From contig OY763407.1 of NCBI GenBank assembly GCA_963667425.1, positions 1,930,281 through 1,994,280 of the forward strand: a DNA stretch of 64,000 bases, given 5' to 3'. The notes below the pieces were generated by a model. The model saw only the letters and a list, made by a program, of their open reading frames with translations, searched no databases and was not told the origin of the DNA. The position numbers and the translations under genes were made by a program. This DNA is from a bacterium. Lineage in GTDB: Bacteria > UBP6 > UBA1177 > G963667425. Below, in pieces: positions 27,326-64,000 of this stretch (positions within the stretch are counted from its first letter, which is position 1; the number at the start of each line of letters is the position of its first letter).

Positions 27326-27343
27326 TTCTTCTTATCCTCCAGC

Positions 27344-27709: not shown

Positions 27710-27726
27710 ACTTCACCTCCTAAATA

Positions 27727-27840: not shown

Positions 27841-27867
27841 AAAACCCTCCATATATACAAATATATA

Positions 27868-30180: not shown

Positions 30181-30183
30181 TTT

Positions 30184-30714: not shown

Positions 30715-30730
30715 CTATCTTCTCCAAAAA

Positions 30731-31084
30731 TTAAAAGTTAAGACCACCTTCTCTGGCACCATCAGCAAGAGCTTTTACTCTGCCGTGATAAATATATCCA
30801 TTCCTATCAAATATAACGGCTGTTATATTTGCTTCCTTACAGAGAGCAGCAACAAAAAGTCCGACATGCTTTGCAATAGTTTTTTTGTCACCTTCAGGAG
30901 CCTCAAATCTTTTGTCTTTTGTAGAAGCAGAAAGAAGTGTTTTTCCATCAACGTCATCAATCATCTGAACATAAATATGATTATGACTTCTAAAAACACT
31001 CATTCTTGGTCTTTCTGCTGTCCCGAATACTTTTTTTCTTATCCTTTTTTTACGGGTAAGTCTTTTTTCTATTTTACCTTTCAT
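30731..31084 (-). CDS. rplR: 50S ribosomal protein L18
   Basis: L18 signature ([20 protein letters not shown]). Confidence 0.95.
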
Positions 31085-31101
31085 CTTATCAACCTCTCAG
31101 A

Positions 31102-31638
31102 TTACTTGCCTGCGGCTTTTCCAGCCTTTCTTAAAATCTTCTGACCTTGATAGAAAATGCCTTTACCTTTGTAAGGCTCTACTGGTCTAAGCTTCTTTAT
31201 AACAGCTGCAAAATTACCAAGAAGCTCTTTATCAAAAGAAACCAAAGTAAGCTGATCCGGTTTAACGTCAGCGGAAATCCCTTTAGGTATTTCCATCTCT
31301 ACAGGATGTGAAAAACCTAAAGAAAATCCAATCTTTGTACCTTTGCTTTCAAACTTGTAGCCGGTACCTTTAAGTTGTAAAACTTTTGTAAAACCTTCGC
31401 TGACACCTACGACCATGTTATTGATGAGTGCTCTAAAAAGACCATGAAGAGCTCTTGTTTCTCTTTCATCATCAACTCTTACAACGGCAATGACATTGTT
31501 TTCCACATTTACAGATATTTTCGGGTGAAGCTCTCTTTCAAGTGTTCCCTTAGGACCCTTTACGGTTAACTTGTTATCTGAAACTGTCACCTGAACATTG
31601 GCACCAAAATGAATTGGAGCATTTCCTATTCTAGACAC
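31102..31638 (-). CDS. rplF: 50S ribosomal protein L6
   Basis: MSRIGNAPI... L6 signature. Confidence 0.95.
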   Translation of the reverse strand: MSRIGNAPIHFGANVQVTVSDNKLTVKGPKGTLERELHPKISVNVENNVIAVVRVDDERETRALHGLFRALINNMVVGVSEGFTKVLQLKGTGYKFESKGTKIGFSLGFSHPVEMEIPKGISADVKPDQLTLVSFDKELLGNFAAVIKKLRPVEPYKGKGIFYQGQKILRKAGKAAGK

Positions 31639-31656
31639 CTTAATCCTCCTCTTTCA

Positions 31657-32055
31657 CTACCAGACTCTACAGATAACTTCTCCACCCACATTAAGTTCTC
31701 TTGCCTTTGCATCTGAAAGAACTCCTTTGGATGTAGAAATAACAGCAAGACCCAATCCTTTTCTTACGTAAGGAACTGTATCAGCAGCTGCGTATATTCT
31801 TCTGCCTGGTTTACTTATTCTTTCTATTTTGGAAATTACATTTTTCCCTTTGTAGAACTTAAGATCTACAGAAATTGTTCTTCTTGCACCAACCTGTGTT
31901 ACATGATAATCCTTTATATAGCCCTCTTCTTTAAGAACTCTGGATATTTCAACGATAACGTTGGAACAAGGTATCGCATCAACATTTTCATGGTGTGCAA
32001 TTATAGCATTTCTTACTCTTGTAAGATAGTTTGCTACAAGATCATTCATTGTCAT
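31657..32055 (-). CDS. rpsH: 30S ribosomal protein S8
   Basis: S8 signature (DLVANYLTRVRNA). Confidence 0.95.
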   Translation of the reverse strand: MTMNDLVANYLTRVRNAIIAHHENVDAIPCSNVIVEISRVLKEEGYIKDYHVTQVGARRTISVDLKFYKGKNVISKIERISKPGRRIYAAADTVPYVRKGLGLAVISTSKGVLSDAKARELNVGGEVICRVW

Positions 32056-32072
32056 GACTTTATACCTCTTTA

Positions 32073-32258
32073 TTACCAGCTGGACTTTGTTACGCCAGGG
32101 ATCTCTCCCTTATTTGCCATAGTTCTGAAACATATTCTGCACATGTCGAACTTTCTTATATATCCTCTAGGTCTTCCACACAGAGGACAGCGATTACCTT
32201 TTCTTACACTGAACTTTGGCTTTCTCTGAGCTTTAAGCCTCATACTAAGTTTTGCCAA
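32073..32258 (-). CDS. rpsZ: 30S ribosomal protein S14 type Z (zinc-binding)
   Basis: 61 aa with C-x-x-C...C-x-x-C ([20 protein letters not shown]), the short zinc-ribbon S14 form. Confidence 0.9.
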
Positions 32259-32273
32259 TTTTCCCTCCAGATA

Positions 32274-32831
32274 TTAACTGTTAAAAGGCATACCAAAATG
32301 TCTAAGAAGAGCTTTCGCATCCTTATCATTTGTTGCCGTTGTTACTATTGTAATATTCATTCCCTTTGTCTTTTCAACTTTATTGAAATCTATTTCAGGG
32401 AAAATCATGAAATCCTTGATACCAAGAGAATAGTTTCCTCTTCCATCAAAACCCTTTCCGGAAATTCCTCTAAAGTCCTTTACACGAGGAAGAGCTACAT
32501 TAACAAGTCTGTCAAGAAAATCATACATCATATCTTTTCTAAGAGAAACTGAAACACCTATTGGCATTCCCTCTCTAACTTTAAAGCTGGCTATAGATTT
32601 TTTTGCCTTACGAACAACAGGTTTCTGTCCTGCAATCGCTGTAAGCTCTTTTACAGCATCTTCAAGTATTTTCTTATTCTGAATAGCTTCACCAACACCC
32701 ATATTGATAGATATCTTTTCTATTTTAGGAATAGCATTGATATTCTCTATGGCAAGCTCGCTTTTCAGATCAGACTTTATCTCTTCTTCATAAAGCTTTC
32801 TAAGTCTGCTTACATATTTCTCGCTCATCAA
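32274..32831 (-). CDS. rplE: 50S ribosomal protein L5
   Basis: L5 signature and spc-operon position. Confidence 0.95.
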
Positions 32832-32840
32832 ATATCTCCG

Positions 32841-33164
32841 TTAATCAACAGTTTCACCAGTTTTCTTAAAAAACCTAACTCTAGATCCATCTTCCAGAGT
32901 CTTTACCCTTATTCTGTCTGTCTTGTCAGTTTTAGGGTCAACCGGCATAACATTGGAAATATGTATCGGCATTGGCTTTTCTATTTTTCCGCCTTCCTGA
33001 TTTGTCATAGTCGGCTTCTGATGTTTAATAGCGATATTAACACCTTCGACAACAACTTTTTCAGATTTGCGAAGAACTTCTAAAACCTTACCTCTTTTTC
33101 CTTTGTCCTTTCCGGCAATAATCTCAACAAGGTCGTTCTTCTTAATATTCGACATTTTAGACAT
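32841..33164 (-). CDS. rplX: 50S ribosomal protein L24
   Basis: KOW motif (KKNDLVEIIAGKDKGKRGKV). Confidence 0.95.
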   Translation of the reverse strand: MSKMSNIKKNDLVEIIAGKDKGKRGKVLEVLRKSEKVVVEGVNIAIKHQKPTMTNQEGGKIEKPMPIHISNVMPVDPKTDKTDRIRVKTLEDGSRVRFFKKTGETVD

Positions 33165-33174
33165 CGTATTCTCC

Positions 33175-33543
33175 TTAAAGCACTTCCGGGGCGAGAGAAA
33201 TAATCTTCATAAAACCTTTAGCACGAAGCTCTCTGGCAACAGGTCCGAAAACACGTGTTCCTATTGGTTCATATGAATCATCTACCATAACAACTGCATT
33301 CTGGTCAAATCTTATATAAGAACCGTCCTCTCTACGTATTTCCTTACATACTCTGACTATTACAGCGTTTTTTACATCGCCCTTTTTTATTTTTCCTTTA
33401 GGTTCTGCATCCTTTACAGCAACCTTTATTACATCACCAATGCCGGCATATCTTTTCTTGGAACCTCCAAGAACTTTGATACATGCAACTTTTTTTGCTC
33501 CGGAATTGTCTGCAACTTCGAGTTTCGTCATTTCCTGTATCAT
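33175..33543 (-). CDS. rplN: 50S ribosomal protein L14
   Basis: [19 protein letters not shown]... L14 signature. Confidence 0.95.
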
Positions 33544-33545
33544 GA

Positions 33546-33803
33546 TTATTTCCCCTCAGAAACAACTTCTTTTACGAACCATTTCTTTCTTTTGCTTATA
33601 GGTGCGCATTCCTGGATACGAACAACATCACCAACATTACACTGATTATTTTCGTCATGAGCCAAATATTTTTTTCTGGCTGTAACCATTTTTTTGTAAA
33701 GTGCATGCTGGTATCTTCTGAGAACTAAAACAGAAACTGTCTTTTCAGCTCCATTTGTGACTACAGTACCCGTAAGCACTCTCCTTCTCTTCACATCAGC
33801 CAT
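33546..33803 (-). CDS. rpsQ: 30S ribosomal protein S17
   Basis: Start set at internal ATG 33803 ([15 protein letters not shown]), giving the usual 8-nt overlap with rpmC; the longer track ORF would overlap rpmC by 29 nt. Confidence 0.9.
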
Positions 33804-33999
33804 TTCTTTCCTCTCGTTCAACATTTGATAAGATGGTCTTGATTCTAGCTATATCTTTACGAACCTGACCTATTCTTGAACTATTTTCCAATTGTCCGAG
33901 ACTATGCTGAACCCTAAGATTGAACTGTTCTTCTTTTCTTGCAAGAAGAAGTTCTTTAAGTTCTGCAACACTCTTTTCTTTAAGTTCAGATGCTTTCAT
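33796..33999 (-). CDS. rpmC: 50S ribosomal protein L29
   Basis: 67 aa, L29 signature ([19 protein letters not shown]). Confidence 0.9.
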
Positions 34000-34415
34000 C
34001 TCAGTTCATCTCCCTTTTTAATAAATTTCGTCCTAAGAGGAAGTTTATAAGCAGCAAGCCTAAGAGCATCTTTTGCAACTTCTGGATCTACATCGCCAAC
34101 TTCGAAAAGCATTCTGCCTGGCTTTATAACACAAACCCACTCTTCCGGATTTCCTTTTCCCTTACCCATACGAACTTCAAGAGGTTTCTTTGTTATAGGT
34201 TTGTCAGGAAAAATTCTAATCCAAAGTCTTCCACCTCTTTTCATTCTTCTCATAATAGCAACACGAGCCGCCTCGATTTGTCTGCTATTTATCCAGCCAC
34301 ACTCTGTAGCTTTAAGACCGCAATCACCAAAATCAACTGAATTACATGATGTTGCAACGCCTTTCATTCGGCCCTTCTGAACCTTTCTATGTTTCACTCT
34401 ATTCGGCATCAACAT
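33996..34415 (-). CDS. rplP: 50S ribosomal protein L16
   Basis: [19 protein letters not shown]... L16 signature. Confidence 0.95.
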
Positions 34416-34427
34416 GGTATAAGCCCT

Positions 34428-35111
34428 CTAAGATTTTTTTCTTCTTTTTTTCTGATTCTTATCTTTGCCAAAAAGCTGTGCCTGTGTAATTTCCCCTCTG
34501 GAAACCCACACCTTCACACCTATTTTTCCATAGGTTGTATCAGCTTCAGCAAAACCGTAATCAATATATGTCCTAAGAGTATGAAGAGGCGTTCTACCTT
34601 CCTGATATCTTTCTGTTCTGGACATTTCTGCTCCACCGAGTCTTCCTGAAAGAGCAACCTTCACACCCTCAGCACCACTCTTCATAGCGGAAGTAATAGA
34701 TTTTTTCATAACTCTTCTAAAATGAGCTCTTTTCTCAAGCTGTTCTGCGATACCCTCAGCAACAAGCTGTGCATCAACTTCAGGCTTTTTTACTTCTTCA
34801 GGCTGAACATAAACTTCATCAGCACTCTTAGCTATTTTTTTAACCATAGCTTTGATTTTTTCTATGCCAGCACCTTTTCTGCCAACAATAACACCAGGTT
34901 TTGCTGCATGAATTATAAGCTTCAGCTTCTGACCTGATCTCTCAATAGACATACTGGATACGCCTGCAACATAAAACTCTTTTTTAAGTACCTTTTTTAT
35001 CTTAAGATCCTCATGCAGCCACATTCCATAATCTTTATGTGTGTACCACACGGAATCCCAGGTACGATTAATTCCGAGTCTTAGTCCGACGGGATTAACC
35101 TTCTGTCCCAA
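34428..35111 (-). CDS. rpsC: 30S ribosomal protein S3
   Basis: MGQKVNPVGLRLG... with KH domain; S3 signature. Confidence 0.95.
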   Translation of the reverse strand: MGQKVNPVGLRLGINRTWDSVWYTHKDYGMWLHEDLKIKKVLKKEFYVAGVSSMSIERSGQKLKLIIHAAKPGVIVGRKGAGIEKIKAMVKKIAKSADEVYVQPEEVKKPEVDAQLVAEGIAEQLEKRAHFRRVMKKSITSAMKSGAEGVKVALSGRLGGAEMSRTERYQEGRTPLHTLRTYIDYGFAEADTTYGKIGVKVWVSRGEITQAQLFGKDKNQKKRRKKS

Positions 35112-35140
35112 AATTTCACCTCCTGGTATATATCTTACAA

Positions 35141-35491
35141 CTATTTACTTTCAGCCAGTTCAACTGTAACATGCGCAGTTCTTTTCTTTATAAGACTTGC
35201 ACGACCCTGAGCTCTTGGCATAAATCTCTTATATGCAGGACCTTCGTCAACAGTGATAGTCTTAACATAAAGAGTATCAACATCCATGCCGAAATTATTC
35301 TCAGCATTTGCAACAGCTGAATCAAGAAGTTTTTTTATCGCAACAGCTGCTTTTCTGTTTGTAAACTCAAGTATATTACGTGCATCTTCAGCGCCTTTTC
35401 CTCTTACAAGGTCGGCAACTTCCCTCATTCTTCTCGGGGAAGACCTGAAATACTTCAACTTGGCTTTAACAATTTTGTCGGAACTCATCAT
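35141..35491 (-). CDS. rplV: 50S ribosomal protein L22
   Basis: L22 signature (KLKYFRSSPRRMREVADLVRGK). Confidence 0.95.
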   Translation of the reverse strand: MMSSDKIVKAKLKYFRSSPRRMREVADLVRGKGAEDARNILEFTNRKAAVAIKKLLDSAVANAENNFGMDVDTLYVKTITVDEGPAYKRFMPRAQGRASLIKKRTAHVTVELAESK

Positions 35492-35553
35492 ATTCTCCTA
35501 ACATAAATTTTTAGCGGGAGCATCTTACATACGTTTTATTAAAAGTCAAGTAT

Positions 35554-35820
35554 TTACTTTTTGCTACCCGAATGTCCTCTAAAAGTTCTGGTCGGAGAAA
35601 ACTCACCAAGTTTAAAACCAACCATATCTTCTGTTACAAAAACAGGGATAAATTTTTGACCATTATAAACAGCAAATGTGAGACCAAGCATCTCAGGAAG
35701 AATAGTTGATCTTCTTGACCATGTTTTAATAGGTTTTTTTACACCACTATCCAATGCTTTTTCTACTTTGTCCCAAAGATGTTTGTCTATAAAAGGACCT
35801 TTCTTAACTGAACGAGGCAA
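35554..35820 (-). CDS. rpsS: 30S ribosomal protein S19
   Basis: [12 protein letters not shown]... S19 signature. Confidence 0.95.
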
Positions 35821-35850
35821 AGCTACCCTCCACTTCTACAAAAGTTATTA

Positions 35851-36684
35851 TTAATTGCTTTTTCTTCTTCTTACTATGAACTTGTCAGTTCTGCGGTTGT
35901 TTCTGGTTCTGTAACCTTTTGTCGGTTTTCCCCATGGAGTTACAGGATGTCTACCGCCTGAAGTTTTACCTTCACCACCACCGTGTGGATGGTCAACAGG
36001 GTTCATAACAACACCTCTAACTTTTGGTCTCTTACCAAGCCATCTTGATTTTCCGGCTTTTCCAACTCTTATATTGGATATTTCGGAATTTCCTACAGTA
36101 CCAACTGATGCTCTGCAATCAAGATGAATAAGTCTGATTTCTGAAGAAGGCATTCTTACTGTTGCATAGTCCTTTTCCTTACCAAGGATCTGAACTCCAG
36201 AAGCAGCTGATCTAGCTATCTGACCACCTTTGCCAACTTTAAGCTCAACGTTGTGAATAAATGTACCAACAGGGATGAAACGAAGCTTCATTGAATTTCC
36301 TGGCTTTACATCTGCTTCACTTTCTTTAGCAGAAACTACCATATCTCCAACTTTAATTTTATCTGGAGCTATAATGTATCTCTTTTCACCATCAAGATAG
36401 TGAATAAGAGCGATCCTTGCATTTCTATTTGGATCGTATTCTATTGCGGCAACTTTTCCCGGAACATCATATTTATTTCTTTTAAAATCGATGATTCTGT
36501 AGAGTCTTTTATGTCCACCACCTCTTCTTCTCATGGTTATACGACCATAAGAGTTACGTCCACCTGTTTTTTTAAGTGGAGTTGTCAATGATTTTTCCGG
36601 AGAAGTTTTTGTTATTTCAGAAAAATCAACATTCGAAGCGTTTCTACGTCCGGGGGATGTTGGATTATAAACCTTAATTCCCAT
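35851..36684 (-). CDS. rplB: 50S ribosomal protein L2
   Basis: L2 signature ([21 protein letters not shown]). Confidence 0.95.
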
Positions 36685-36704
36685 TTTTATCAGCTCCTAT
36701 AATA

Positions 36705-37106
36705 CTAGTTTGTACCATCAATATAGTTGATAGTGTGTCCTTCCTTTAATGTTACATAAGCTTTCTTCCAGTTAGATCTCTTTCCGAAAACTTTACCAAC
36801 TCTCTTAAGCTTTCCTCTTACGAGAACTGTATTTACACTTTCAACTTCAACATTAAAAATTTTCTCTACAGCCTGCTTAATCTCTAACTTAGTTGCCTTA
36901 ATGTCAACCTGATAAACAAAATTTCTATTGTCTTCTCCTGTTGAAGCCATTGCAGCTTTTTCAGTCATAAGAGGCTTTCTGATTATGTCATAGCAACGTT
37001 CTTTGCTGATAGCTACATCAGTTCTTTTAGAAACGTTATAACCAGATTCTTTACCTGCAGCACGACGAATCTTTTTATTCATGCTGTAAACATCTACTTT
37101 TTTCAT
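36705..37106 (-). CDS. rplW: 50S ribosomal protein L23 (N-terminally extended)
   Basis: L23 core (IIRKPLMTEKAAMAS ... FNVEVESVNTVLVRGK) preceded by a ~35-aa basic extension; the ATG overlaps the rplD stop (ATGA). Exact start uncertain. Confidence 0.85.
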   Translation of the reverse strand: MKKVDVYSMNKKIRRAAGKESGYNVSKRTDVAISKERCYDIIRKPLMTEKAAMASTGEDNRNFVYQVDIKATKLEIKQAVEKIFNVEVESVNTVLVRGKLKRVGKVFGKRSNWKKAYVTLKEGHTINYIDGTN

Positions 37107-37735
37107 CCAAGCACCTCATTCAAGTGTTTTGCTGCCTCTTCGGTAAGAATTATGTTCTTATAGTTCATAATATCATAAAGATTTACCTCTGAGCAATCAA
37201 TCCAGTTGTAATCTCTGAGATTTTCCACTGAACGAATAAAGTTTTCCTCTTTCTGCATTCCACAAATAACAATAGCGCTTTCAAGATTCCAAACATTCTT
37301 GAACATGTTGAACGCATCTTTTGTTTTGGGTGCATCAAAAAGAAACTTATCAACAACAAAAAGTCTTTCTGTTGCAAATCTTTCAGAAAGGACTGCCTTT
37401 ACAGCAGCCTTTCTTTTCTTTGCATTAACTTTTATAGTATAATCTCTTGGCTGAGGAGAAAATGCTTTTGCTCCACCTCTAAGTGTAGAAGCTCTCATTG
37501 TTCCTCTTCTGGCTCTTCCTGTTCCTTTCTGTTTAAAAGGCTTGGAATTTCCGCCTGAAATTGTATTATATGTTTTTGTTGCGTGTGTACCAGCTCTCCA
37601 GGCAGCCATTCTTGCCTTGATTACTTCATGAACAAGAACGTCCTTGCCTTCGTAGTCAGTCTTAAAAACAGAATCGTTAAGCTCTATCTCGCCGATTTTA
37701 GTTTTTTCTCTGTTATATAAATCACAAACAGCCAT
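37103..37735 (-). CDS. rplD: 50S ribosomal protein L4
   Basis: L4 signature and S10-operon position. Confidence 0.95.
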   Translation of the reverse strand: MAVCDLYNREKTKIGEIELNDSVFKTDYEGKDVLVHEVIKARMAAWRAGTHATKTYNTISGGNSKPFKQKGTGRARRGTMRASTLRGGAKAFSPQPRDYTIKVNAKKRKAAVKAVLSERFATERLFVVDKFLFDAPKTKDAFNMFKNVWNLESAIVICGMQKEENFIRSVENLRDYNWIDCSEVNLYDIMNYKNIILTEEAAKHLNEVLG

Positions 37736-37748
37736 CTTTTTACCTCAA

Positions 37749-38369
37749 TTATTTCTTAATATAAACCAGATTGCCGTTCGGACCAGGGATGGCACCTTTT
37801 ACTGCAATTGTGTTCTGTTTGGAATCTACCTTTACTACAAGAAGGTTCTTTACAGTTACCTGCTCATTACCGTATCTTCCCGCCATTTTTTTATTCTTCC
37901 ATACTTTAGATGGAAAAACGCACTGTCCGATTGAACCGGTATGTCTATGAAATTTAGATCCGTGTGTTTTTCTTCCACCACCGAAATTCCATCTTTTTAC
38001 AACACCACTAAAACCACGTCCTTTTGTAAAGCCGATAACTTTTACTTTATCGCCTGCGTTAAAAAGTTCAGCATTTATCTCATCGCCAAGAGCATATGCA
38101 TCAAGCTCTTCAGGAGAAACTCTAAATTCTTTAAGTTTCTTATAAACACCCTTTCCCGCATTCTTAAAGTGCCCTGCTTCAGGTTTGGAAACATTTTTCT
38201 CCTTCTTGGCAAAACCAAGCTGAAGAGCTGTGTAACCATCTTTTTCAGCGTTCTTTTTCTGAACGACTGTACAAGGACCTGCCTCTATAACAGTTACAGG
38301 AACCACCTTACCGTCTTCTGTGAAGATCTGTGTCATTCCTATTTTTTTTCCTATTAGTCCAGCAGTCAT
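37749..38369 (-). CDS. rplC: 50S ribosomal protein L3
   Basis: [29 protein letters not shown]... L3 signature. Confidence 0.95.
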
Positions 38370-38438
38370 TTTTTCCCTCTCTGCTTTTCAATAATTCTCA
38401 AAACATTCTCTCTCAAACTACTCTAACCAAGCCCTAAA

Positions 38439-38747
38439 TTAATAGGTCTTGATTTCAATCTCAACACCTGCGCTGAGATCGGTTTTCATCAGTTCGTCCA
38501 TAGTCTGATTGGTCGGGCTAAGAATATCAATTATTCTTCTATGAATTCGCATTTCAAACTGTTCTCTGGACTTCTTATTAACATGCGGGGAGCGAAGCAC
38601 AGTGTACTTGTGTATTTTAGTAGGAAGTGGAATAGGTCCAGCAACCTTTGCACCGGTACGTATAACAGTGTCAATAATTTCTCCAACCGACTGGTCAAGA
38701 ATCTTATGGTCAAAAGCTTTCAGCTTTATTCTAATCTTCTCGTTCAC
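38439..38747 (-). CDS. rpsJ: 30S ribosomal protein S10
   Basis: [16 protein letters not shown] ... GPIPLPT S10 signature. Confidence 0.95.
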
Positions 38748-38772
38748 TTTGACACCTCAAATATATATCAAT

Positions 38773-39966
38773 TTATCCAACAATTTTAGAAACAACACCT
38801 GAACCTACTGTTCTGCCACCTTCTCTGATAGCAAATCTAAGTCCTTCTTCCATAGCGATAGGAGATATAAGCTCAACTGTTATTGTTACGTTATCGCCCG
38901 GCATTACCATCTTTACATCTTCAGGAAGATTAAGAACTCCTGTAACGTCTGTTGTTCTGAAGAAGAACTGTGGTCTGTATCCTGTAAAGAACGGTGTATG
39001 TCTTCCACCTTCATCTTTAGTAAGTACGTAAACCTCTCCCTCAAACTTCGTATGAGGAGTAATCGATCCCGGTTTAGCAAGTACCTGACCTCTTTCAACT
39101 TCTTCCTTCTTGATTCCTCTTAACAGACATCCTACGTTGTCGCCTGCCTGGCCTTCATCAAGAAGCTTTCTGAACATTTCAACGCCTGTACATGTAGTTT
39201 CTTTGGTTTCGGTAATTCCTACTATCTGTACTTTTTCGCCTACTCTAACTATTCCTCTTTCTATTCTTCCTGTAACAACTGTTCCTCTTCCTGATATTGT
39301 GAAAACATCTTCTATCGGCATAAGGAATGGTTTGTCAACACTTCTTTCCGGCTCCGGAATATAGCTGTCTACTGCATCCATGAGATCATATATACACTGT
39401 ACTTCAGGTGATTCAGGATCATCTGAATTAAGTGCATTAAGCGCTGATCCTCTTACTATTGGTGTATCGTCGCCAGGAAATTCATACTGATCAAGAAGCT
39501 CTCTGATTTCCATCTCAACAAGGTCAAGAAGTTCTTCGTCATCAACCTGATCAACTTTATTAAGAAATACTACTATATAAGGAACACCAACCTGTCTTGA
39601 AAGAAGGATGTGCTCTCTTGTCTGTGGCATAGGACCGTCTGCTGCTGATACAACAAGGATTGCTCCGTCCATCTGGGCAGCTCCGGTGATCATGTTCTTT
39701 ACGTAGTCAGCGTGACCAGGACAGTCAACGTGTGCATAATGTCTGGTTGCTGTCTGATATTCAACGTGTGCCGTTGCTATTGTGATTCCTCTTTCTCTTT
39801 CTTCCGGTGCTTTGTCTATATTGTCAAAGCTTACGTACTCTGAAAGACCTTTTGATGCAAGAGTCTTGGTTATAGCTGCTGTAAGTGTTGTCTTACCGTG
39901 ATCTACGTGTCCTATCGTTCCAATGTTAACATGTGGTTTGGACCTGTCAAACTTTGCCTTAGCCAT
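38773..39966 (-). CDS. tuf: Elongation factor Tu
   Basis: [16 protein letters not shown]-loop, [13 protein letters not shown]-motifs; 397 aa. Confidence 0.98.
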
Positions 39967-39987
39967 TTTTTTCTCCTTTTATATAAG

Positions 39988-42057
39988 TTAACCGTAAATA
40001 CGTTCTCTAATTTTCGCAGGAACTTCACCATATTTTGCAAACTGCATGGTAAAGACACCTCTTCCCTGAGTTTTAGATCTTAGATCCGTGGAATACCCAA
40101 ACATCTCAGAAAGAGGAACCAGGGATTTAACAGTTCTAGCACCTGAATTTTCATCATCTTCCATACCAAGTACAGTTCCTCTTCTACTCTGAATATCAGA
40201 AAGAACATCTCCGGTATAGTCTTCAGGGATAGTAACATCAACACCCATAAGAGGTTCAAGAAGTATTACACCTGCTTTTTCTTCGGCCTTTTTAAAACAC
40301 TGAATAGCAGCAATTTTAAATGCTGTATCAGAAGAGTCAACTTCATGGGCCGAACCATCAACCAGTGTAGCTTTTACATCAACAACAGGATATCCATGCA
40401 CGCCGCTTGCAGCAGCAGCTTTTATTCCATATTCAACAGAAGAAATAAATTCTCCAGGAATAGCACCACCCTTGATTTTGTTTTCAAAAACAACACCACC
40501 GTTTTCATTAGGTTCGAATTCAATAACGACATTAGCAAACTGACCTTTACCACCAGTCTGTTTCTGATGTTTGTATGCAAAAGAAATTGGCCCGGCAAAT
40601 TTTTCTCTGTAACTTACCTGGGGACGTCCAACATTTGCGTCAACTTTAAATTCTCTCCTAAGTCTTTCAACCAATATTTCAAGATGAAGCTCTCCCATGC
40701 CAGAAATTATAGTCTGACCAGTTTCTTCATCAGTCTTTACTTTAAAACTAGGATCCTCCTTTGCCAGTTTTCCCAAAGACATTGACAGTCTATCACTATC
40801 AACCTTAGTCTTGGGTTCTATAGCAACATGAATAACAGGTTCAGGAAACTGCATTGACTCAAGAACGAACTGGTCGTTCTTTGTACACAGTGTCGAACCA
40901 GTAATAGCATACTTAAGGCCCACAACAGCACCAATATTACCCGAACTGATGACATCAGTCTCTTCTCTTTTATTAGCATGCATTCTTAAGAGACGGCCAA
41001 TTCTTTCAGCCTTACCGGCAGACGAATTGTAAACCATATCTCCAGATTTAAGTTCGCCTGAGTAAACTCTTACAAACGCCAGCTCACCAACAAAAGGATC
41101 TGTCATAATTTTAAAAACAAGAGCACTAAGTCTTGGATCTTCAGAAGAAATCTCAACTTCACGCTCTCTGTCATCATGGGCAATTACAGGAGGTATATCC
41201 ATAGGAGAAGGCATATAATCAACTATCGCATCAAGCAAAAGCTGTACACCTTTATTTTTAAAAGCCGTACCACAACAAACAGGAAAGAATCCTGTTGTAA
41301 GAACAGCCTTTCTTATAACTTTTTTTATTTCAGAAACAGAGATATCTTCACCTGAAAGATATTTCTCCATAAATTCTTCATCATAATCTGATAAAGACTC
41401 TAAAAGAGTTTCTCTTTTTTCAGAAGCATAATCTTCCATATCTGCAGGAACACCTTCTTCAACTCTATAAGTAGAACCGAGAGCATCTTCATCATAGTAA
41501 CATGTTCTCCACTCAACGAGATCTATTATAGCTCTAAAAGTATCTTCCGCACCAATAGGCAACTGAATTGCAACAGCATTTGCTCCCAAACGAGTCTTCA
41601 TCTGTTTAAGAACGTTTTCAAAATTAGCTCCAATTCTGTCCATTTTATTAACAAACGCAAGCCTTGGAACTTTATATTTATTTGCCTGACGCCAAACAGT
41701 TTCAGACTGAGGCTGAACACCTCCAACGGCACAGAAAACAGCAACCGCGCTATCAAGAACTCTAAGAGAACGTTCCACTTCCGCTGTAAAATCAACGTGT
41801 CCAGGAGTATCAATAATATTAATTCTCTTTTCTCTCCAATAGCACGTAGTAGCAGCAGAAGTTATTGTAATACCTCTCTCCTGCTCCTGCTCCATCCAAT
41901 CCATAACCGCAGTACCTTCATGAACCTCACCCAACTTATGAGAAACACCAGTATAGAACAGTATTCTTTCAGTAGTAGTAGTCTTGCCGGCATCGATGTG
42001 CGCCATAATTCCAATATTTCTAATCTCACTTAGAGGCAGTGTTTTTACTGCAGCCAT
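39988..42057 (-). CDS. fusA: Elongation factor G
   Basis: [26 protein letters not shown]-motifs; 689 aa with the EF-G domain order. Confidence 0.98.
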
Positions 42058-42074
42058 AACAATCCGCTCCCGAT

Positions 42075-42545
42075 CTATCTTTTGTAATGAGCAAAAGCCT
42101 TATTAGCTTCCGCCATTTTATGTGTATCTTCTCTTTTCTTGAAAGCAGTTCCTCTCTTATGATAAGCATCATCAAGCTCTGCATGAAGCTTTGCCATCAT
42201 AGTTTTTTCAGACCTTGCTCTTGAAACAGTAATAATCCATCTCATAGCGATAGCTATTGATTTTTCAAGAGAAATTTCTGTAGGAACCTGATAAGTAGCT
42301 CCACCAATTCTTGTTGACTTAACCATAACAAGTGGACGTGCAGATTCCAATGCTTTCTTAAACGCGCCAACTGGTCCTTCCTCTTTTCCTTCAGCAAGTC
42401 TTTCCATAGCACTATAGACTATACCTTCTGCTGTAGATTTTTTACCAGCCTTCATAATCTTATTTATAAACTGCTGAACAATCAGATCTCCATATTTAGG
42501 ATCTGGCATTATTTCTCTTTTCGATGAAAAGCTTTTCCTAGGCAT
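42075..42545 (-). CDS. rpsG: 30S ribosomal protein S7
   Basis: S7 signature ([26 protein letters not shown]). Confidence 0.95.
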
Positions 42546-42563
42546 CTTACAAATTCCTCCTGA

Positions 42564-42938
42564 TTAAGACCTTGGTCTCTTTGCTCCATATTTTGAACGG
42601 CTCTGTTTTCTTCCATCAACGCCAGAAGAGTCAAGAGTACCTCTCACAATATGGTACCTAACACCCGGAAGGTCTTTAACCCTGCCGCCTCTAACAAGAA
42701 CAACACTGTGCTCCTGAAGATTGTGGCCTTCACCGGGGATATAACTTGTAACTTCAAAACCACTAGTAAGTCTAACTCTTGCAACTTTTCTAAGAGCAGA
42801 ATTAGGTTTCTTAGGTGTGGTAGTGTAAACTCTAACACAAACACCCTTTCTCTGAGGACAAGCCTTAAGTGCAGGACATTTGCTCTTTTTTACCGCTGAG
42901 TCTCTTCCTTTTCTTATCAGCTGGTTAATAGTAGGCAT
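42564..42938 (-). CDS. rpsL: 30S ribosomal protein S12
   Basis: Start set at ATG 42938 ([12 protein letters not shown]) with AGGAG 7 nt upstream; the track ORF carries a 20-codon upstream extension. Confidence 0.95.
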
Positions 42939-43521
42939 TCTCATACTCCTAATATCAGATACTAACACAAAAAAATCAACGGGATTATATACCCCCATCC
43001 CAAGCTGTCAAACTATTTTTGTACAACACAAGCAAGTAGTTGTAATCACTGGATTTAATAGCCAAGAGACTCAATGGACGTTTTTAATTTTTACCCTCTT
43101 AAAGATATTTTTTCAACATTTTTCATAAAAAAATTTGACATTTTTTTAACTAATTGCTCTTTCTAAAGAATTCAAACACTTACATTTAATTGCAGTCACT
43201 TATACATAAAAAATGTAGCACAAAACAACAAATAGCCTAAAAATAAAAAAATGTTTACTTATAAAAAAACTCAACATTTTTTCTACACTGGAAATACAAA
43301 GACTTTTTATTGTTTTTTTTAAAATTAATGTTTTACTAAAAATAAAGGAATTTAAAAATAAAAAAAACTTTAAATATCATTATAAGCAATAACTTTATCA
43401 CTATAAACCACAGTGTTTTAAATTTTAAGTGCAAAACGTCATAACTATATAAGTATCTTGAAAAAAAAGTTAATTATATTATGATTAAGAGTCTTTATGT
43501 AATATTGCAGTGAGATGTGCA

Positions 43522-58593: not shown

Positions 58594-59565
58594 TTATTCT
58601 ATGGTATACTCCATAGATTCAGGTTTTCCGCCTCTTACAATATTAAGAGAAATCTTATCGGCATTTCTAAGCCTCTGATAAGCTTCAAGAGCTTTATCAG
58701 GACTCGAAATATCAATTCCATTTATGTTTTTTATGACATCTCCATTCTGAAGTCCTATTTGACTGTAAAGGCTGTTCGGCCTTATCGAAAAAATCTTAAA
58801 ACCAGCTTCGCCTCTGGCAGGAACAATTCTGGCCTGTCTTGCAAGAACGTTAAGATTTGTTGTCGCTTTCATTATTTCGCTTCTTGAAACGACATAACTA
58901 TGATCATCTATTTTTCTAATATTTACATCCTGTTGAGTCGGCATAGCATTATTTATTGGTGCTTTTACAGCGACATCTTTATTTTTCGGCCTATTGGTTA
59001 TTGCATCACCAAGACACCTTACACCTGAAGGTGTTTCAAAAACAACTATATTTCTATCAACATAAAGAAGTTTGGTTCCTTTATCAACCTCTTCCCCAAC
59101 AGAAATTACAGTGGGAGGAATCTCATCTTTTGTTGCTTTTTGTTCAACAGAAATGGAAGAATACTCCACAGGAATTGCAGGAACAATAGCCGTAAGCTTA
59201 ACACCATCCAAAGCCTGACATTTATCAGGATTGTTAAGATAATAGTTGATATCAGTAGGCTCGTTCTTAGATTCTTTTACAAGAGCTCCGTCAGTATTTA
59301 TTCCAGGTACAACAACAGAAAGATCTATCTGGCGCTGTTCCAGATCAAAAATATTATGCTCTGAAACAGATGTTTTATCTTCTCCAAAGAAAACTATTTT
59401 TTTATTATTAATATTACCTTCTGTTTTTTCGTAATAATCTTTTCCAAGCGGAACATAAATAATGTTTTTACCAACAGCAACTGAAATTGCAAAACCTGTC
59501 AATGCAAAGAAAAGAAAGGCAAGTGAAACAAAAACAGCGATATCAAAAAGAGTTCTATTTCTCAT
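58594..59565 (-). CDS. gspC: T2SS GspC-like protein with C-terminal PDZ domain
   Basis: Start at ATG 59565 with GGAAGGAG upstream; N-terminal TM helix (IAVFVSLAFLFFALTGFAI); C-terminal PDZ-like segment (GFKIFSIRPNSLYSQIGLQNGDVIKNINGIDI); first gene of the operon, immediately upstream of gspD. Confidence 0.6.
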   Translation of the reverse strand: MRNRTLFDIAVFVSLAFLFFALTGFAISVAVGKNIIYVPLGKDYYEKTEGNINNKKIVFFGEDKTSVSEHNIFDLEQRQIDLSVVVPGINTDGALVKESKNEPTDINYYLNNPDKCQALDGVKLTAIVPAIPVEYSSISVEQKATKDEIPPTVISVGEEVDKGTKLLYVDRNIVVFETPSGVRCLGDAITNRPKNKDVAVKAPINNAMPTQQDVNIRKIDDHSYVVSRSEIMKATTNLNVLARQARIVPARGEAGFKIFSIRPNSLYSQIGLQNGDVIKNINGIDISSPDKALEAYQRLRNADKISLNIVRGGKPESMEYTIE

Positions 59566-59674
59566 CGGCTCCTTCCAGAAAAATTTCAACGATGCCGATA
59601 TAAGCAAAAAAAATGCCAAAACCCTTTTCTTTAAATATCAACGGGTTACAAAACCGTTTTTGTATGCCAAAAAA

Positions 59675-59704
59675 TCATTTTGTCATATTGACATGACAAA
59701 ATGA
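59675..59704. promoter_or_regulatory. Perfect 12-bp inverted repeat (TCATTTTGTCAT-N6-ATGACAAAATGA), candidate operator in the divergent gspC / radical-SAM intergenic region
   Basis: Read directly from the sequence; it contains a TTGACA hexamer at 59688..59693 and lies between two divergently transcribed operons. Confidence 0.4.
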
Positions 59705-59755
59705 CTGTCAGATAAACTTGTTTCAAGTTATATAAAAGCAAAGCATAATTCTCCA

Positions 59756-59783
59756 TTGCCCAAAAATTTTTATTGTATATAAT
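59756..59783 (+). promoter_or_regulatory. Putative sigma70-type promoter for the radical-SAM/DUF4130 operon
   Basis: TTGCCC-N16-TATAAT about 45 nt upstream of ATG 59828, which has a GAGGGA Shine-Dalgarno. Prediction by eye only. Confidence 0.3.
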
Positions 59784-59827
59784 CACGAATCTTGTGAGAA
59801 TATATTTCTCATAAAACTGAGGGAATT

Positions 59828-61075
59828 ATGGAAACTGGCGATAAGCTCATAATTCTTGGTGAAGCAGCAAAATATGATGCCAGCTGCTCATCAAGCGGAA
59901 GTGAAAGAAAAGGAAAAACAGGAGAAACCGGAAGCGGACACAAAGCCGGAATATGTCACAGCTGGGCAAGCGACGGCAGATGTATAAGTTTACTCAAAAT
60001 TCTCCTTACCAACTATTGCATTTATGACTGTGCATACTGCATAAACAGAAGAAGCAACGATGTAAAAAGAGCAGCATTTACAGTTGATGAAGTGGTTTCA
60101 CTTACAATGAATTTTTATAAAAGAAACTACATCGAAGGCTTGTTTTTAAGTTCAGGTATAGTGAAAAATCCAGATTACACAATGGAACGAATGATGCTCG
60201 TTGCAAAAAAGCTAAGAAATGAAGAACATTTCAATGGATATATTCATTTAAAAGCTATTCCAGGAGCAAGCGAGACACTTATAAAAGAAGCAGGACTGTA
60301 TGCTGACAGAATGTCCGTTAACATCGAACTACCTTCAGAAAGAAGTCTGCTTTTACTTACAAACAAAGATAGGGGCTCCATTCTCTCTCCGATGAAACAG
60401 ATAACAACAACTATCCATGAAAACACTGAAGAGAGGAAATTTTCAAAAAAACTTCCTATTTTTGCACCGGCAGGTCAGACAACCCAGCTGATAGTTGGAG
60501 CAACACCGGAAAACGACCTCAAAATCATAAAACTCACAGAAGCAATGTATAAGAAATACAATCTAAAAAGAGTCTATTATTCAGCATTTGTTCCTGGAAG
60601 TAATGATAAACGTCTTCCTGTTGTTTCAACGCCGCCTCTTGCACGTGAACACAGACTTTATCAGGCAGACTGGCTGTTAAGATTTTATAATTTTGAGGCC
60701 GATGAAATAATTTCTCCTGAATCACCATTTCTTTCAGAAGAAGTAGATCCTAAAGCATCATGGGCAATGAGAAATCTTAACCTTTTTCCAGTTGAAATAA
60801 ATAAAGCGTCACTTGAGACACTTTTAAGAGTACCTGGTATCGGAAAAACTTCCGCTCTTAAAATTGTCAGTGCAAGAAAAAATGGAAAACTCGACTTTGA
60901 ACATCTTAAAAGAATGAATGTTGTCCTTAAAAGAGCCCGTTTTTTTATAACATGCAAAGGAAAAATGATGGAAGGAACACTTCTTAAAGAAAATATAATT
61001 TACGAAGCAATGAAAAAGACATCAACAAAAGCCGGAAGTACAGACCACATTTATGAACAGCTATCTTTATTTTAA
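59828..61075 (+). CDS. Radical SAM protein of the putative DNA modification/repair family (TIGR03916-like) with C-terminal helix-hairpin-helix
   Basis: C-x3-C-x2-C radical SAM cluster motif (CIYDCAYC); ~415 aa; C-terminal HhH motif (LLRVPGIGKTSALKIV). Confidence 0.75.
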   Translation: METGDKLIILGEAAKYDASCSSSGSERKGKTGETGSGHKAGICHSWASDGRCISLLKILLTNYCIYDCAYCINRRSNDVKRAAFTVDEVVSLTMNFYKRNYIEGLFLSSGIVKNPDYTMERMMLVAKKLRNEEHFNGYIHLKAIPGASETLIKEAGLYADRMSVNIELPSERSLLLLTNKDRGSILSPMKQITTTIHENTEERKFSKKLPIFAPAGQTTQLIVGATPENDLKIIKLTEAMYKKYNLKRVYYSAFVPGSNDKRLPVVSTPPLAREHRLYQADWLLRFYNFEADEIISPESPFLSEEVDPKASWAMRNLNLFPVEINKASLETLLRVPGIGKTSALKIVSARKNGKLDFEHLKRMNVVLKRARFFITCKGKMMEGTLLKENIIYEAMKKTSTKAGSTDHIYEQLSLF

Positions 61076-61077
61076 AA

Positions 61078-61833
61078 ATGATATTTATATATGATGGCAC
61101 GTTTGAAGGAATGCTTTCAGCTGTATTTGATGCAATTCTTGTAAATGAAGAAATATTTATTGAGACAGAAGAAAATCATACTCCAAGACTTTTTCACGAA
61201 ATAACTAAAATTCAAACATCGACTGACAAAGCAAAAAGAGTTTCCAGAAAAATTATAGAAAACATGGGAACATTTACATTTTCAGTTGTTGCATATCTTT
61301 TTCTTTCCGAAGATAAAGAAAGAGGAACATTAGCATTTCATCTCATAAAGGAAGGGCTAAAACATGGCAGAAACGTTACATCATTTCTGCAAAATAAAGA
61401 AGTAGCAAAAGCAATGGGAATAAGAAAAAAAGTTGCAAACGAAAAACACCGTCTTCTTGGATTAATAAGATTTTCAGAGCTTTCAAATAACATTCTATAT
61501 GCTCCATTTGAACCTGACCACAACATTATAACACTATTGATTTCTCACTTTAAAGAGCGGCTTTCAGCCGACAGATGGATGATTCACGATATAAAAAGAG
61601 GACTCGCCATTTTTCATGAAAACGGAACCATTCAAAATATTGAATTTAAAGATGAAGAAATATCAAAAACCAATCTGGAAACACTTTACGGCATTTCAGA
61701 AAATGAAAAAAAGCTGTCATCAATGTGGAAAGAATTCTTTAAAGCCGTTGCAATAGAAGAGAGAATAAATCCGAAACTGCAAAAGCAGTATATGCCTAAA
61801 AGATACTGGAAATATCTTAAAGAGACACATTAA
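61078..61833 (+). CDS. DUF4130 / TIGR03915-like probable DNA metabolism protein, partner of the radical SAM gene
   Basis: Characteristic N-terminus (IFIYDGTFEGMLSAVFDAIL); ~250 aa; 2 nt downstream of the radical SAM gene. Confidence 0.65.
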   Translation: MIFIYDGTFEGMLSAVFDAILVNEEIFIETEENHTPRLFHEITKIQTSTDKAKRVSRKIIENMGTFTFSVVAYLFLSEDKERGTLAFHLIKEGLKHGRNVTSFLQNKEVAKAMGIRKKVANEKHRLLGLIRFSELSNNILYAPFEPDHNIITLLISHFKERLSADRWMIHDIKRGLAIFHENGTIQNIEFKDEEISKTNLETLYGISENEKKLSSMWKEFFKAVAIEERINPKLQKQYMPKRYWKYLKETH

Positions 61834-61836
61834 GAC

Positions 61837-63147
61837 CTATTTCAGAACAACGCCCCATTCAAGAAGTGAAAACCCTTTTCTTTCAAAACTTTTTATCTCT
61901 GGCTTAGCAAGAAAATCCCTGCAGGTATCATCTTTTTTTATGACATAAAAAAGACGCTGAACAGAATCAGGAGTTTTGGAAATATTTATTTTTATCAGCT
62001 TATCTATCTCATCTGCTGTCTGAGGATAAATATCATAACAGCTTTCATTAAGTCTTGGAATCCACCATTCAATAAAATCTTCCACTTCCTTACCTTTAAA
62101 ACCGTAACGAGCAAGATTTTCTCTGAAAAATTTCTCCAGATTATCCTTTTTCACTGTCCAGCCAGTTTTATACTGATAAAAATCAGGATGCTGAGCTTCA
62201 TAAAAAAGATATCCATATTCACCATTAATCGTTCCATCAGGTTCAACCGTAACATTCCATCCATCACCATATTCAGGAATAGATTTTGTTACAAAACCGC
62301 CCTGAGGAAATTCAAGTGAAAGAGAAATATCCATTTTTTCTTCAGGATAAAGGTAAATATTTGGCTTATAATCCTGAGCCATCGCAGAAACTCTTATATC
62401 AATATAATTTGAATCTATAGAAACCGGCTCATCATATTGAGAACCATCAGAATCAGTAAAACTAAAAATATAATCGCCGATTGGAATATCAATAACAAAT
62501 TTACCGTTGGTACTAAAACAACCAACTTTTTTTCCATCTTTGTCATAAACTGTAACATCTGCAAATAAAGAAGAAGGACCAAAATAATCCTGAACTATAA
62601 AGATATTTCCATTAACATAGTTTTTCATAATGGGATCAAGATTTACCGATATGTTATCACCATATTCTGCATAAGTATAATTTGTAAAAAAACCTTCTGA
62701 TGTCTCATAAATAAAATATGAAGGAGTCTCGCCGTTGTAAGGATTTTCCTCATCAACTTCAATAACCTTGTTACCTTCACTTTGCATAGTTAAAGTATCA
62801 AGAAGATTCCCCCAGCCATTTGAATATACTGAAAGAATAATATTTTTTGCATCAGTATCAAGATTTTCATTACTGTATTCAACACTTAAATCTTTACATT
62901 CTGAAACAATATCATCATCTGCTGCTTCATCGTTTGTTTCATCAGAAATTTCATCATTTATCTCGTCAGCCACTTCATCTGCAGTTTCGTCGTTTATTTC
63001 ATCTGCAACTTCATCACTGATTTCATCAATATCAGTTTTAGGTTCAGCTTTATCATTGTCACATGAAATAAAAATAAAAATTAGTAAAAATACAAAAATT
63101 AAACTCTTCATAACATACCTCTTTATTATTTCTGCACAACGCCCCAT
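61837..63147 (-). CDS. Lipoprotein with acidic repeat linker (tandem paralog A)
   Basis: Signal peptide plus lipobox (FIFISCDND); repeats of DE[VI][AS]DE[IT]ND; beta-sandwich-like middle region and conserved C-terminal domain (FRENLARYGFKGKEVEDFIEWWIPRL ... LLEWGVVLK). Confidence 0.65.
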   Translation of the reverse strand: MGRCAEIIKRYVMKSLIFVFLLIFIFISCDNDKAEPKTDIDEISDEVADEINDETADEVADEINDEISDETNDEAADDDIVSECKDLSVEYSNENLDTDAKNIILSVYSNGWGNLLDTLTMQSEGNKVIEVDEENPYNGETPSYFIYETSEGFFTNYTYAEYGDNISVNLDPIMKNYVNGNIFIVQDYFGPSSLFADVTVYDKDGKKVGCFSTNGKFVIDIPIGDYIFSFTDSDGSQYDEPVSIDSNYIDIRVSAMAQDYKPNIYLYPEEKMDISLSLEFPQGGFVTKSIPEYGDGWNVTVEPDGTINGEYGYLFYEAQHPDFYQYKTGWTVKKDNLEKFFRENLARYGFKGKEVEDFIEWWIPRLNESCYDIYPQTADEIDKLIKINISKTPDSVQRLFYVIKKDDTCRDFLAKPEIKSFERKGFSLLEWGVVLK

Positions 63148-64000
63148 TCAAGAAGTGAAAAGCCTTTTCTTTCAAAACTTTTTATCTCTGGCTTAGCAAG
63201 AAAATCCCTGCAGGTATCATCTTTTTTTATAACATAAAAAAGACGCTGAATAGAATCAGGCGTTTTAGAAACATTTATTTTTATAACCTTATCTATCTCT
63301 TCTGCTGTCTGAGGATAAATATCATAACAGCTTTCATTAAGTCTTGGAATCCACCATTCAACAAAATCTTCTATTTCCTTACCTTTAAAGCCGTAACGAT
63401 CAAGATTTTCTCTGAAAAATTTCTCCAGATTATCTTTCTTTACCGTCCAACCGGTTTTATACTGATAAAAATCGGGTTGCTTTGCTTCGTAGAAAAGATA
63501 GCCGTATTCACCATCAATTGTTCCATCAGGTTCAACCGTAACATTCCACCCATCACCATATTCAGGAATAGATTTAACAACAGTTCCTCCTTTAGGAAAC
63601 TCAAGTGAAAGAGATATATTTTCTCTCTTTTCAGGGTAAAGATAAATATTTGGCTTGTCTACCTGAACAAGAGCATCTACAATAATTTCAATATAATTAG
63701 AATTTACAGTAACCGATTCATTATATTCAGAGTCATCAGAATCTGTAAAATTGAAAGTATAGTTTCCTGTAGGAAGATCAATTACAAACCTTCCATTTGC
63801 ATCAGCAGTAAAACAGCCAAATTTATTTCCATCACCATCGTAAACAGTCACATTACCTGTAAGCATTGAAGGACCAAAGTAATTCTGTAAAATAAAAATA
63901 TTTCCATTAATATAATTTTTCATAACCGGGTCAAGATCGACAAACACTGTTTCACCATATTTTGCATATTGAACATATGTAAAAAAACCTTCAGCTCTTT
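63126..64000 (-). CDS. Lipoprotein tandem paralog B (5' end beyond the window edge)
   Basis: The C-terminal ~270 aa align with paralog A at high identity (my estimate by eye, not computed). The reading frame stays open past the track start at 63947 to the window end and keeps aligning with paralog A (AEGFFTYVQYAKYGETVFV vs SEGFFTNYTYAEYGDNISV). Confidence 0.65.
   Translation of the reverse strand, partial: RAEGFFTYVQYAKYGETVFVDLDPVMKNYINGNIFILQNYFGPSMLTGNVTVYDGDGNKFGCFTADANGRFVIDLPTGNYTFNFTDSDDSEYNESVTVNSNYIEIIVDALVQVDKPNIYLYPEKRENISLSLEFPKGGTVVKSIPEYGDGWNVTVEPDGTIDGEYGYLFYEAKQPDFYQYKTGWTVKKDNLEKFFRENLDRYGFKGKEIEDFVEWWIPRLNESCYDIYPQTAEEIDKVIKINVSKTPDSIQRLFYVIKKDDTCRDFLAKPEIKSFERKGFSLLEWGVVQK

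Follow-up and report, generated by a model that had tools for sequence, protein, structure and literature searches.

Which reaction is carried out by a radical S-adenosylmethionine (SAM) enzyme whose gene is immediately followed by a gene for a DUF4130 protein, and do the two serve the DNA damage response? The question is raised here by positions 59828-61833 of a 64,000-nucleotide stretch of bacterial DNA (contig OY763407.1), the whole of which is called the window below. Our analysis makes it reasonably likely that the two genes constitute one operon and that its products, of the TIGR03916/TIGR03915 type, form a DNA-directed radical SAM enzyme of two subunits, acting as a DNA-damage-response module. 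This reading is based on the pairing and fusions of the two proteins, a helix-hairpin-helix module, a clamp-type tail, LexA boxes in front of most relatives and fusions to UdgX elsewhere. The radical SAM gene (59828-61075, + strand, ATG start) encodes 415 residues with the cluster motif CIYDCAYC at residues 64-71, and the DUF4130 gene (61078-61833, + strand) encodes an unfused protein of 251 residues, starting with MIFIYDGTFEGMLSAVF, without a uracil-DNA glycosylase (UDG) or UdgX domain. The first gene ends in GAA CAG CTA TCT TTA TTT TAA, the TAA stop (61073-61075) being followed by AA and then by the ATG of the second; this 2-nt gap makes translational coupling likely. The list of open reading frames (ORFs) agreed exactly with the preliminary description of the locus, in which a radical SAM protein of about 415 residues with this motif was followed 2 nt later by a protein of about 250 residues.

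Family membership was assessed by hidden Markov model comparison (NCBIfam and Pfam), and all three models named in the preliminary description were matched above their curated cut-offs. The radical SAM protein scored 644.4 bits against TIGR03916 (cut-off 343.5, E = 8e-194), residues 5-415 aligning with positions 3-415 of the 415-position model. The partner scored 245.4 bits against TIGR03915 (cut-off 112.25, E = 7e-73) and 171.9 bits against Pfam DUF4130 (PF13566; cut-off 27, E = 1e-50). These scores indicate that the two ORFs are not due to chance. The view that they represent a known pair without an established activity was supported; no activity report was found in the literature searched. 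Identity with spore photoproduct lyase, or with SplB-like proteins (COG1533), was considered and discarded since neither a sequence match nor a close structural match was obtained; the radical SAM core does not match this lyase, the characterized enzyme that the preliminary description had singled out as a competing assignment.

Relatives were collected by scanning one genome per species (GTDB set), which gave 588 of them, and the best 80 were analysed as genome loci. These best 80 displayed 55-67% identity and came from Clostridia, Bacteroidota, Spirochaetota, Fusobacteriota, Halanaerobiales and Dependentiae, indicating that the radical SAM protein is very strongly conserved across phyla; the lineage of the window was not represented in this collection, where the best identity was 67%. 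Exact-sequence look-ups of the two window proteins returned no entry. An unfused DUF4130 gene of 241-333 codons was found directly downstream in 78 of the 80 loci, and no third gene family occurred near the pair in more than 12 of them, suggesting that the pair is a self-contained module. A second set of 80 metagenome loci, none above 65% identity, was used as a replicate only. An adjoining DUF4130 gene, as judged by the distance window of the script, was present in 62 of the 68 loci having sufficient downstream sequence, and three of the six misses showed a + strand DUF4130 match just beyond that distance. The closest relative, locus L081, has a radical SAM protein 88% identical and a DUF4130 protein 79% identical to those of the window, and its pair is likewise divergent from a type II secretion (gsp) operon.

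Physical association of the two proteins was suggested by single-chain forms. In a whole-library search 845 representatives reached an E-value of at most 1e-30, and radical SAM plus DUF4130 were joined in one chain in P0243 (729 residues), P0248 (669 residues) and P0250 (666 residues), which belong to three different 50%-identity clusters. The peptide QLS(L/F)F was retained in the linker of P0243 and P0250. Such fusions provide Rosetta-stone support for a physical complex, although they may be artefacts of gene calling. A confident AlphaFold 3 heterodimer was also predicted for a Lachnospiraceae pair in a 2026 preprint, whose authors called experiments still needed.

Several elements of the radical SAM protein carried information on its probable chemistry and location. 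The CX3CX2C site of the radical SAM [4Fe-4S] cluster (C64/C68/C71; 60017-60040, + strand) was kept in 39 of 40 diverse sequences. Besides the Radical_SAM domain, Pfam recognized HHH_3 at residues 322-361 (60791-60910, + strand; E = 2.3e-7), a helix-hairpin-helix DNA-binding module whose region also matched ComEA and RuvA chains of the PDB by sequence and profile. The C-terminal helix-hairpin-helix of the preliminary description is present, but it is situated in the C-terminal third rather than at the terminus, where a separate conserved motif, EQLSLF, was found. An N-terminal cysteine triad (C20, C43 and C52, in DASCSSSG, GICHSW and GRCISLLK; 59885-59983, + strand) was invariant in 60 aligned homologues as well as in the Leisingera and Acinetobacter members. 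In a divergent set of 40 sequences, a cysteine at position 19 or 20 was present in 38, C43 in 26 and C52 in 26. The region was modelled at a predicted local distance difference test (pLDDT) of 53-65, and judging from its conservation the triad probably holds a second, auxiliary Fe-S cluster.

The C-terminal QLSLF (61058-61072, + strand) is a candidate binding motif for the beta sliding clamp. It matches the consensus QL[S/D]LF, and PolC of B. subtilis terminates in the same pentapeptide (PMC12309361). A relaxed form of the motif was found within the last 70 residues of 173 of 200 close homologues (shuffled sequences: mean 8.8, maximum 17) and a strict form in 113 of them (shuffled mean 0.31), the latter never occurring in the protein bodies. 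The clamp penta- or hexapeptide was still present in 18 of 34 divergent sequences, compared with a shuffled mean of 1.0. The tail (residues 399-415) was disordered in the structure model, with pLDDT below 50. The terms "clamp-binding motif" and "radical SAM" were never combined in the literature searched, in which neither the cysteine triad nor the clamp-type tail was found as a feature of the family. In many Firmicutes loci (L003, L004, L008, L010, L018, L022, L025 and L053 among others) about 16-22 residues follow QLxLF, and this extension ends in a second conserved motif, (L/I)(T/G)GE(L/F/M/I)-COOH, often after LLLxD; this terminus may be a second docking peptide.

Sequence and profile searches of the PDB revealed no solved structure related to either protein. 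The model of the radical SAM protein (pLDDT 83) consisted of a partial barrel of six strands, then helical and helix-hairpin-helix modules, and finally the disordered tail. Its nearest solved folds were HydE (score 15.6), LipA (15.4 and 15.3) and HydG (15.2), followed by BioB (15.0), NosL (14.8) and ThiH (14.2), and spore photoproduct lyase came at rank 28 (9.8). DUF4130 was modelled with what appears to be a RecJ/DHH-like fold. According to the 2026 preprint, this DHH-like fold is devoid of the DHH catalytic residues, and the predicted channel is narrow and suits a single strand. The basic C-terminal segment of DUF4130 (residues 229-249, RINPKLQKQYMPKRYWKYLKE; 61762-61824, + strand) was dense in invariant or near-invariant columns. 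It was modelled at pLDDT 57-78 despite this strong conservation, and we infer that it may become ordered on binding a partner or nucleic acid.

The regions upstream of the relatives were informative on regulation. A clade-appropriate LexA box was found upstream in 57 of the 80 genome loci. Cores of the type AAC-N4-GTT, which read as textbook Cheo boxes (CGAACATATGTTTG, CGAACAAACGTTCT), occurred in 43 loci, 23-147 nt upstream with one weak instance at -202, and CTAA-N5-TTAG occurred in 15 Bacteroidota loci; the background per equal-sized window was 7.6% and 1.1%, respectively. Five Bacteroidota loci (including L062, 5085-5897) carried directly upstream of the pair, in divergent orientation, a gene for a 270-residue protein combining XRE-HTH and S24-peptidase-like parts, which, judged by its sequence, looks like the non-canonical LexA of Bacteroidetes. 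These observations are in line with earlier reports. LexA regulation of the operon was predicted by Erill's group in Verrucomicrobia (PMC4951493) and again in Bacteroidetes, the TIGR models being reported in about 20% of genomes and always as an operon (PMC4951493). Likewise, CAC3343-CAC3344 of C. acetobutylicum were assigned to the LexA regulon, and both genes of Acinetobacter require the damage-response activator DdaA, the radical SAM gene being induced by desiccation.

In the window, the pair was preceded by a candidate sigma-70 promoter (-35 TTGCCC, 16-nt spacer, -10 TATAAT; 59756-59783, + strand; 10 of 12 matches in a promoter scan) and by a Shine-Dalgarno-like GAGGGA read from the sequence (59819-59824, + strand), 3 nt 5' of the radical SAM ATG. 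When compared with L081 and three further clade members, the only conserved intergenic blocks were ATTGCC and the hexamer TAT.AT, which were also the only ones shared by the five relatives of the clade that could be used for footprinting. Other candidate elements were tried and rejected. The promoter yielded no LexA box, whether of the Cheo, the Bacteroidota, the E. coli or the TTTG-N5-CAAA type; the palindrome AACTTG-N3-CAAGTT (59706-59720) falls in a gap of the L081 alignment, and the conserved 50-nt block at 59661-59712 is more plausibly part of the divergent sigma-54 gsp promoter than an element of the pair.

A connection with UdgX was found outside the nearest relatives. On a plasmid of Leisingera aquaemixtae (R2C4_RS01655 / RS01660), the radical SAM gene is followed by one for a 494-residue fusion protein with TIGR03915 at residues 10-237 and TIGR03914, now named UdgX family, at 239-470. 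The fused domain keeps hallmarks of UdgX, namely GEQPG, an RRRLH loop (cf. KRRIH) and HPAHILR, which are motifs described in PMC10359453. The preliminary description had mentioned occasional fusion to a UDG-like domain, and the Leisingera protein is a case in point, its domain being identified as one of the UdgX family. According to the TIGRFAMs description, DUF4130 is reportedly joined in about 40% of the family to such a UdgX-type domain, which excises uracil and crosslinks to AP sites. The associated UDG-like gene that the preliminary description suggested looking for was not recovered from the window: a phmmer search with the UdgX domain found nothing at E up to 10, either in the six-frame translation of the 64 kb or, for the 80 genome loci, in the 6 kb around the pair, and the 80 metagenome loci had no UDG-like ORF at a distance of up to 3 kb. 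UdgX is DNA-specific, excises uracil and stays covalently bound to the abasic site, RecA being the only requirement known downstream; it was never linked with radical SAM in the literature searched.

These elements can be assembled into a mechanism. The 415-residue subunit would bind a [4Fe-4S] cluster on C64/C68/C71 and cleave SAM to the 5'-deoxyadenosyl radical, a second Fe-S cluster being probably held by C20/C43/C52. It would contact DNA via its helix-hairpin-helix, and its QLSLF tail would probably bring it to beta clamps at stalled or gapped replication sites. DUF4130, as a catalytically decayed RecJ/DHH-like fold, would dock on the enzyme and present a nucleic-acid strand, probably single-stranded, from which the radical would abstract a hydrogen at a damaged nucleotide, whereupon the lesion would be reversed or processed. 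Speculatively, the substrate may be a pyrimidine- or uracil-related lesion, the sole hint being the UdgX fusions. The copy in the window appears to be the UdgX-less form, driven by the conserved predicted sigma-70 promoter. The regulation is best accounted for by repair through radical chemistry, and modification chemistry is possible in view of the LipA/BioB-like fold and the possible second cluster.

A number of observations weigh against a two-subunit enzyme of the damage response. No activity or mutant phenotype of any family member was found in the literature searched. The nearest folds (LipA, BioB, HydE) are sulfur-insertion or cofactor-maturation enzymes and not the DNA-repair lyase, and such a fold combined with a possible auxiliary cluster implies that modification chemistry fits as well as repair. 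Two clade members, L084 and L087 (75% identity; radical SAM gene at 6001-7248 in each), lack an adjacent DUF4130 gene, the radical SAM gene being followed by a GalT-like gene in L084 and by a convergent GcpE gene in L087. Their DUF4130 partner may lie elsewhere in the genome, and pairing in the clade is therefore strong yet not absolute. About 14% of the close homologues, and about half of the divergent ones, lack the clamp motif or have it in a degenerate form. No LexA box of the Cheo or Bacteroidota type was found at 59620-59827, where the host's own LexA motif may differ, and the only palindrome after the -10 element, TGAGAA-N5-TTCTCA (59794-59810), was rejected as an operator, its left arm being lost in the 88%-identical L081. 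Finally, neither the window nor any of the 160 related loci has UdgX, so that the hint at a uracil-lesion substrate may not transfer to this copy.

A more far-reaching proposal is that the family, with the copy of the window, represents another class of DNA repair enzymes using radical SAM chemistry, the second after spore photoproduct lyase: a clamp-tethered heterodimer that would directly reverse or process lesions of the single-stranded template at stalled forks, where excision repair cannot work, and that would also be the missing physiological partner of covalent AP-site (abasic-site) binders of the UdgX type. We regard this combination as conceivable and rather doubtful.

Among the alternatives, the one that survives best is a DNA-modifying enzyme placing a base or backbone mark (e.g. 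methylation, thiolation or hypermodification) for epigenetic purposes or for protection from phages or nucleases. The family name permits it, the closest folds are those of sulfur-inserting or cofactor-building enzymes, and the N-terminal three-cysteine site recalls the auxiliary clusters of insertion enzymes. The 2026 preprint also favours 'SAM-dependent modification' and likens the complex to MiaB and RlmN, and the pair is present on 164 plasmid or chromid records. On the other hand, neither protein matched any defence family of PADLOC-DB 2.0 at E up to 0.1, and no restriction, defence or other partner gene recurred in the 80 neighbourhoods; an anti-phage defence system was accordingly rejected, there being neither a PADLOC match nor defence neighbours. 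The locus of the window lies among housekeeping genes. Just ten weak 'phage' records matched and were not treated as evidence, and a phage-borne gene was likewise discarded: eight of them are faecal "Bacteriophage sp." fragments lacking annotation, and the other two, 240-kb "Acinetobacter phage" records, have a match just as similar as that of A. baumannii records (52.9% to the query). LexA operators before most relatives and a clamp-type tail typical of replication and repair proteins also argue against a marking role, which we consider unlikely.

Programmed mutagenesis is a second alternative, in which the enzyme would alter bases, for example thymines, in times of stress, and glycosylases and translesion polymerases would turn these alterations into mutations. 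Aravind and colleagues (2013) described DUF4130 as a predicted mutagenesis-related enzyme tied to radical SAM enzymes as well as uracil-DNA glycosylases, and as one that may act on thymines to modify them; they included it in networks of gene neighbourhoods together with SOS mutagenic polymerases. Moreover, SOS control is common to the pair, to imuA-imuB-dnaE2 and to dinB in several phyla, and a clamp tail is shared with translesion polymerases. However, no translesion polymerase, imuA/B or glycosylase gene was found beside the pair in the window or recurrently in the 80 loci, the 2026 preprint finds the DHH catalytic residues missing from DUF4130, and the idea has no experimental support. We hold it to be quite unlikely.

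It may also be envisaged that the pair processes covalent protein-DNA adducts at abasic sites, i.e. UdgX-DNA crosslinks in the forms fused to UdgX and different AP-site adducts in the rest. The fused domain of Leisingera retains the crosslinking histidine loop, and UdgX-DNA adducts require downstream processing for which only RecA dependence is known; a link between UdgX and radical SAM is absent from the literature searched. The absence of UdgX from the window and the 160 nearest loci nevertheless means that the core function cannot depend on UdgX, and this proposal, a speculation from domain association alone, appears very unlikely. The weakest alternative, a tRNA- or rRNA-modifying enzyme whose link with DNA would be an annotation error, recalls the combination of radical SAM with helix-hairpin-helix or other nucleic-acid-binding modules in RlmN/Cfr and MiaB, agrees with the narrow single-strand channel of the 2026 preprint and with a plain sigma-70 promoter about 17 kb from a ribosomal protein cluster, and is highly improbable in view of the LexA boxes of the relatives, the fusion of DUF4130 to the DNA-specific UdgX, the clamp-type tail and the NCBIfam scan, in which no RNA-modifying radical SAM family matched above noise.

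As stated in the preliminary description, the pair is divergently transcribed from gsp genes: on the opposite strand it adjoins a type II secretion operon that is complete (GspC-like PDZ protein, secretin, GspE, GspF, GspG, pseudopilins, GspJ, GspK and a GspM-like protein). A sigma-54-type -24/-12 element, TGGCATTTTTTTTGC, was found at 59604-59618 (- strand), just upstream of the likely gspC start; it was the sole match in the 64 kb and occupies the same place in L081, as TGGCATCTCTTTTGC. The conserved block at 59661-59712, about 50-100 nt further upstream, holds the palindrome TGTCATATTGACA, which reads TGCCATATTGGCA in L081, a symmetric double change, and is a candidate site for an enhancer-binding protein. 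These motifs suggest that transcription of the secretion genes depends on sigma-54. For the GspC-like PDZ gene (58594-59619, - strand), the ORF list gives a TTG start upstream of the gene's own predicted promoter; translation probably begins instead at the ATG at 59565 after GGAAGGAG (MRNRTLFD...).

Other parts of the window were also surveyed. The region 24806-42998 resembles the str-S10-spc-alpha region: ORFs for ribosomal protein S12, EF-Tu, SecY and RpoA were identified by scanning, and an EF-G-sized ORF of 689 residues and many small ORFs lie between them in the ORF list. This places the pair in the core chromosome and not on a mobile element. Downstream of the pair, two tandem paralogues (61837-63147 and 63126-63947, - strand) share 80% identity over 271 residues, with no Pfam match for one and only a single sub-threshold match for the other. 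The first is convergent with the DUF4130 gene, 3 nt separating their stop codons, and its N-terminal part includes a hydrophobic segment, after which come acidic DE-rich repeats (DEISDEVADEINDE...). The window further encodes an RCC1-repeat protein of 848 residues (4884-7433, - strand) and an Lcl_C (DUF1566) domain protein (15050-15598, + strand); an Lcl_C gene also adjoins the radical SAM gene in L087. Rfam detected no RNA families in the window.

The pair, reported in about one-fifth of sequenced bacterial genomes (PMC4951493) and LexA-controlled in several phyla, is among the more widespread DNA-damage-response modules without an assigned reaction. The window adds a further instance of a known family, from an unrepresented lineage, rather than a new kind of system, and its locus makes the open question no easier to test than any other genome. 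The value of the analysis lies less in the locus itself than in the leads obtained for the whole family, namely the clamp-type tail, the probable second Fe-S site, the two-domain fusions and UdgX as the UDG-like partner.

Comparison with known systems places the window copy close to CAC3343-CAC3344 of C. acetobutylicum, C806_00604/00603 of Lachnospiraceae and FDB76_17550/17545 of A. baumannii (COG4277 plus DUF4130), which are full-length members of the family with the same gene order and tight spacing and which share with it CX3CX2C, the helix-hairpin-helix, the cysteine triad, the QLxLF tail and an unfused DUF4130. The window copy differs in having no recognisable LexA box of the types sought, and its arrangement divergent from gsp was found elsewhere only in L081. 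The UdgX-fused form of Leisingera has a radical SAM protein 53% identical to that of the window and shares the EQLSLF tail, the cysteine triad and the DUF4130 domain; its DUF4130 bears a C-terminal UdgX domain (prototype, UdgX of M. smegmatis), whereas the window protein ends after DUF4130. Similarity to DHH/DHHA1 phosphoesterases (RecJ, Cdc45, PAP phosphatase, NrnA) amounts to 6-13% identity with DUF4130 and no sequence-level match. An invariant D/R/H/N/Q set is peculiar to DUF4130, in which the DHH catalytic motifs of the phosphoesterases are not conserved (2026 preprint). Sequence identity to LipA, BioB, HydE, HydG and ThiH amounts to 8-15%, and the profiles of ThiH, MqnE, HydE and CofG/H match the radical SAM protein only at the cluster-binding loop (E ~1e-3). 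The substrates of those five enzymes are proteins or small molecules, and none of the five has a DNA-binding module. Spore photoproduct lyase (SplB, PDB 4FHC), so far the single radical SAM enzyme known for DNA repair, works directly on the damaged DNA and provides the mechanistic precedent for direct reversal by radical chemistry.

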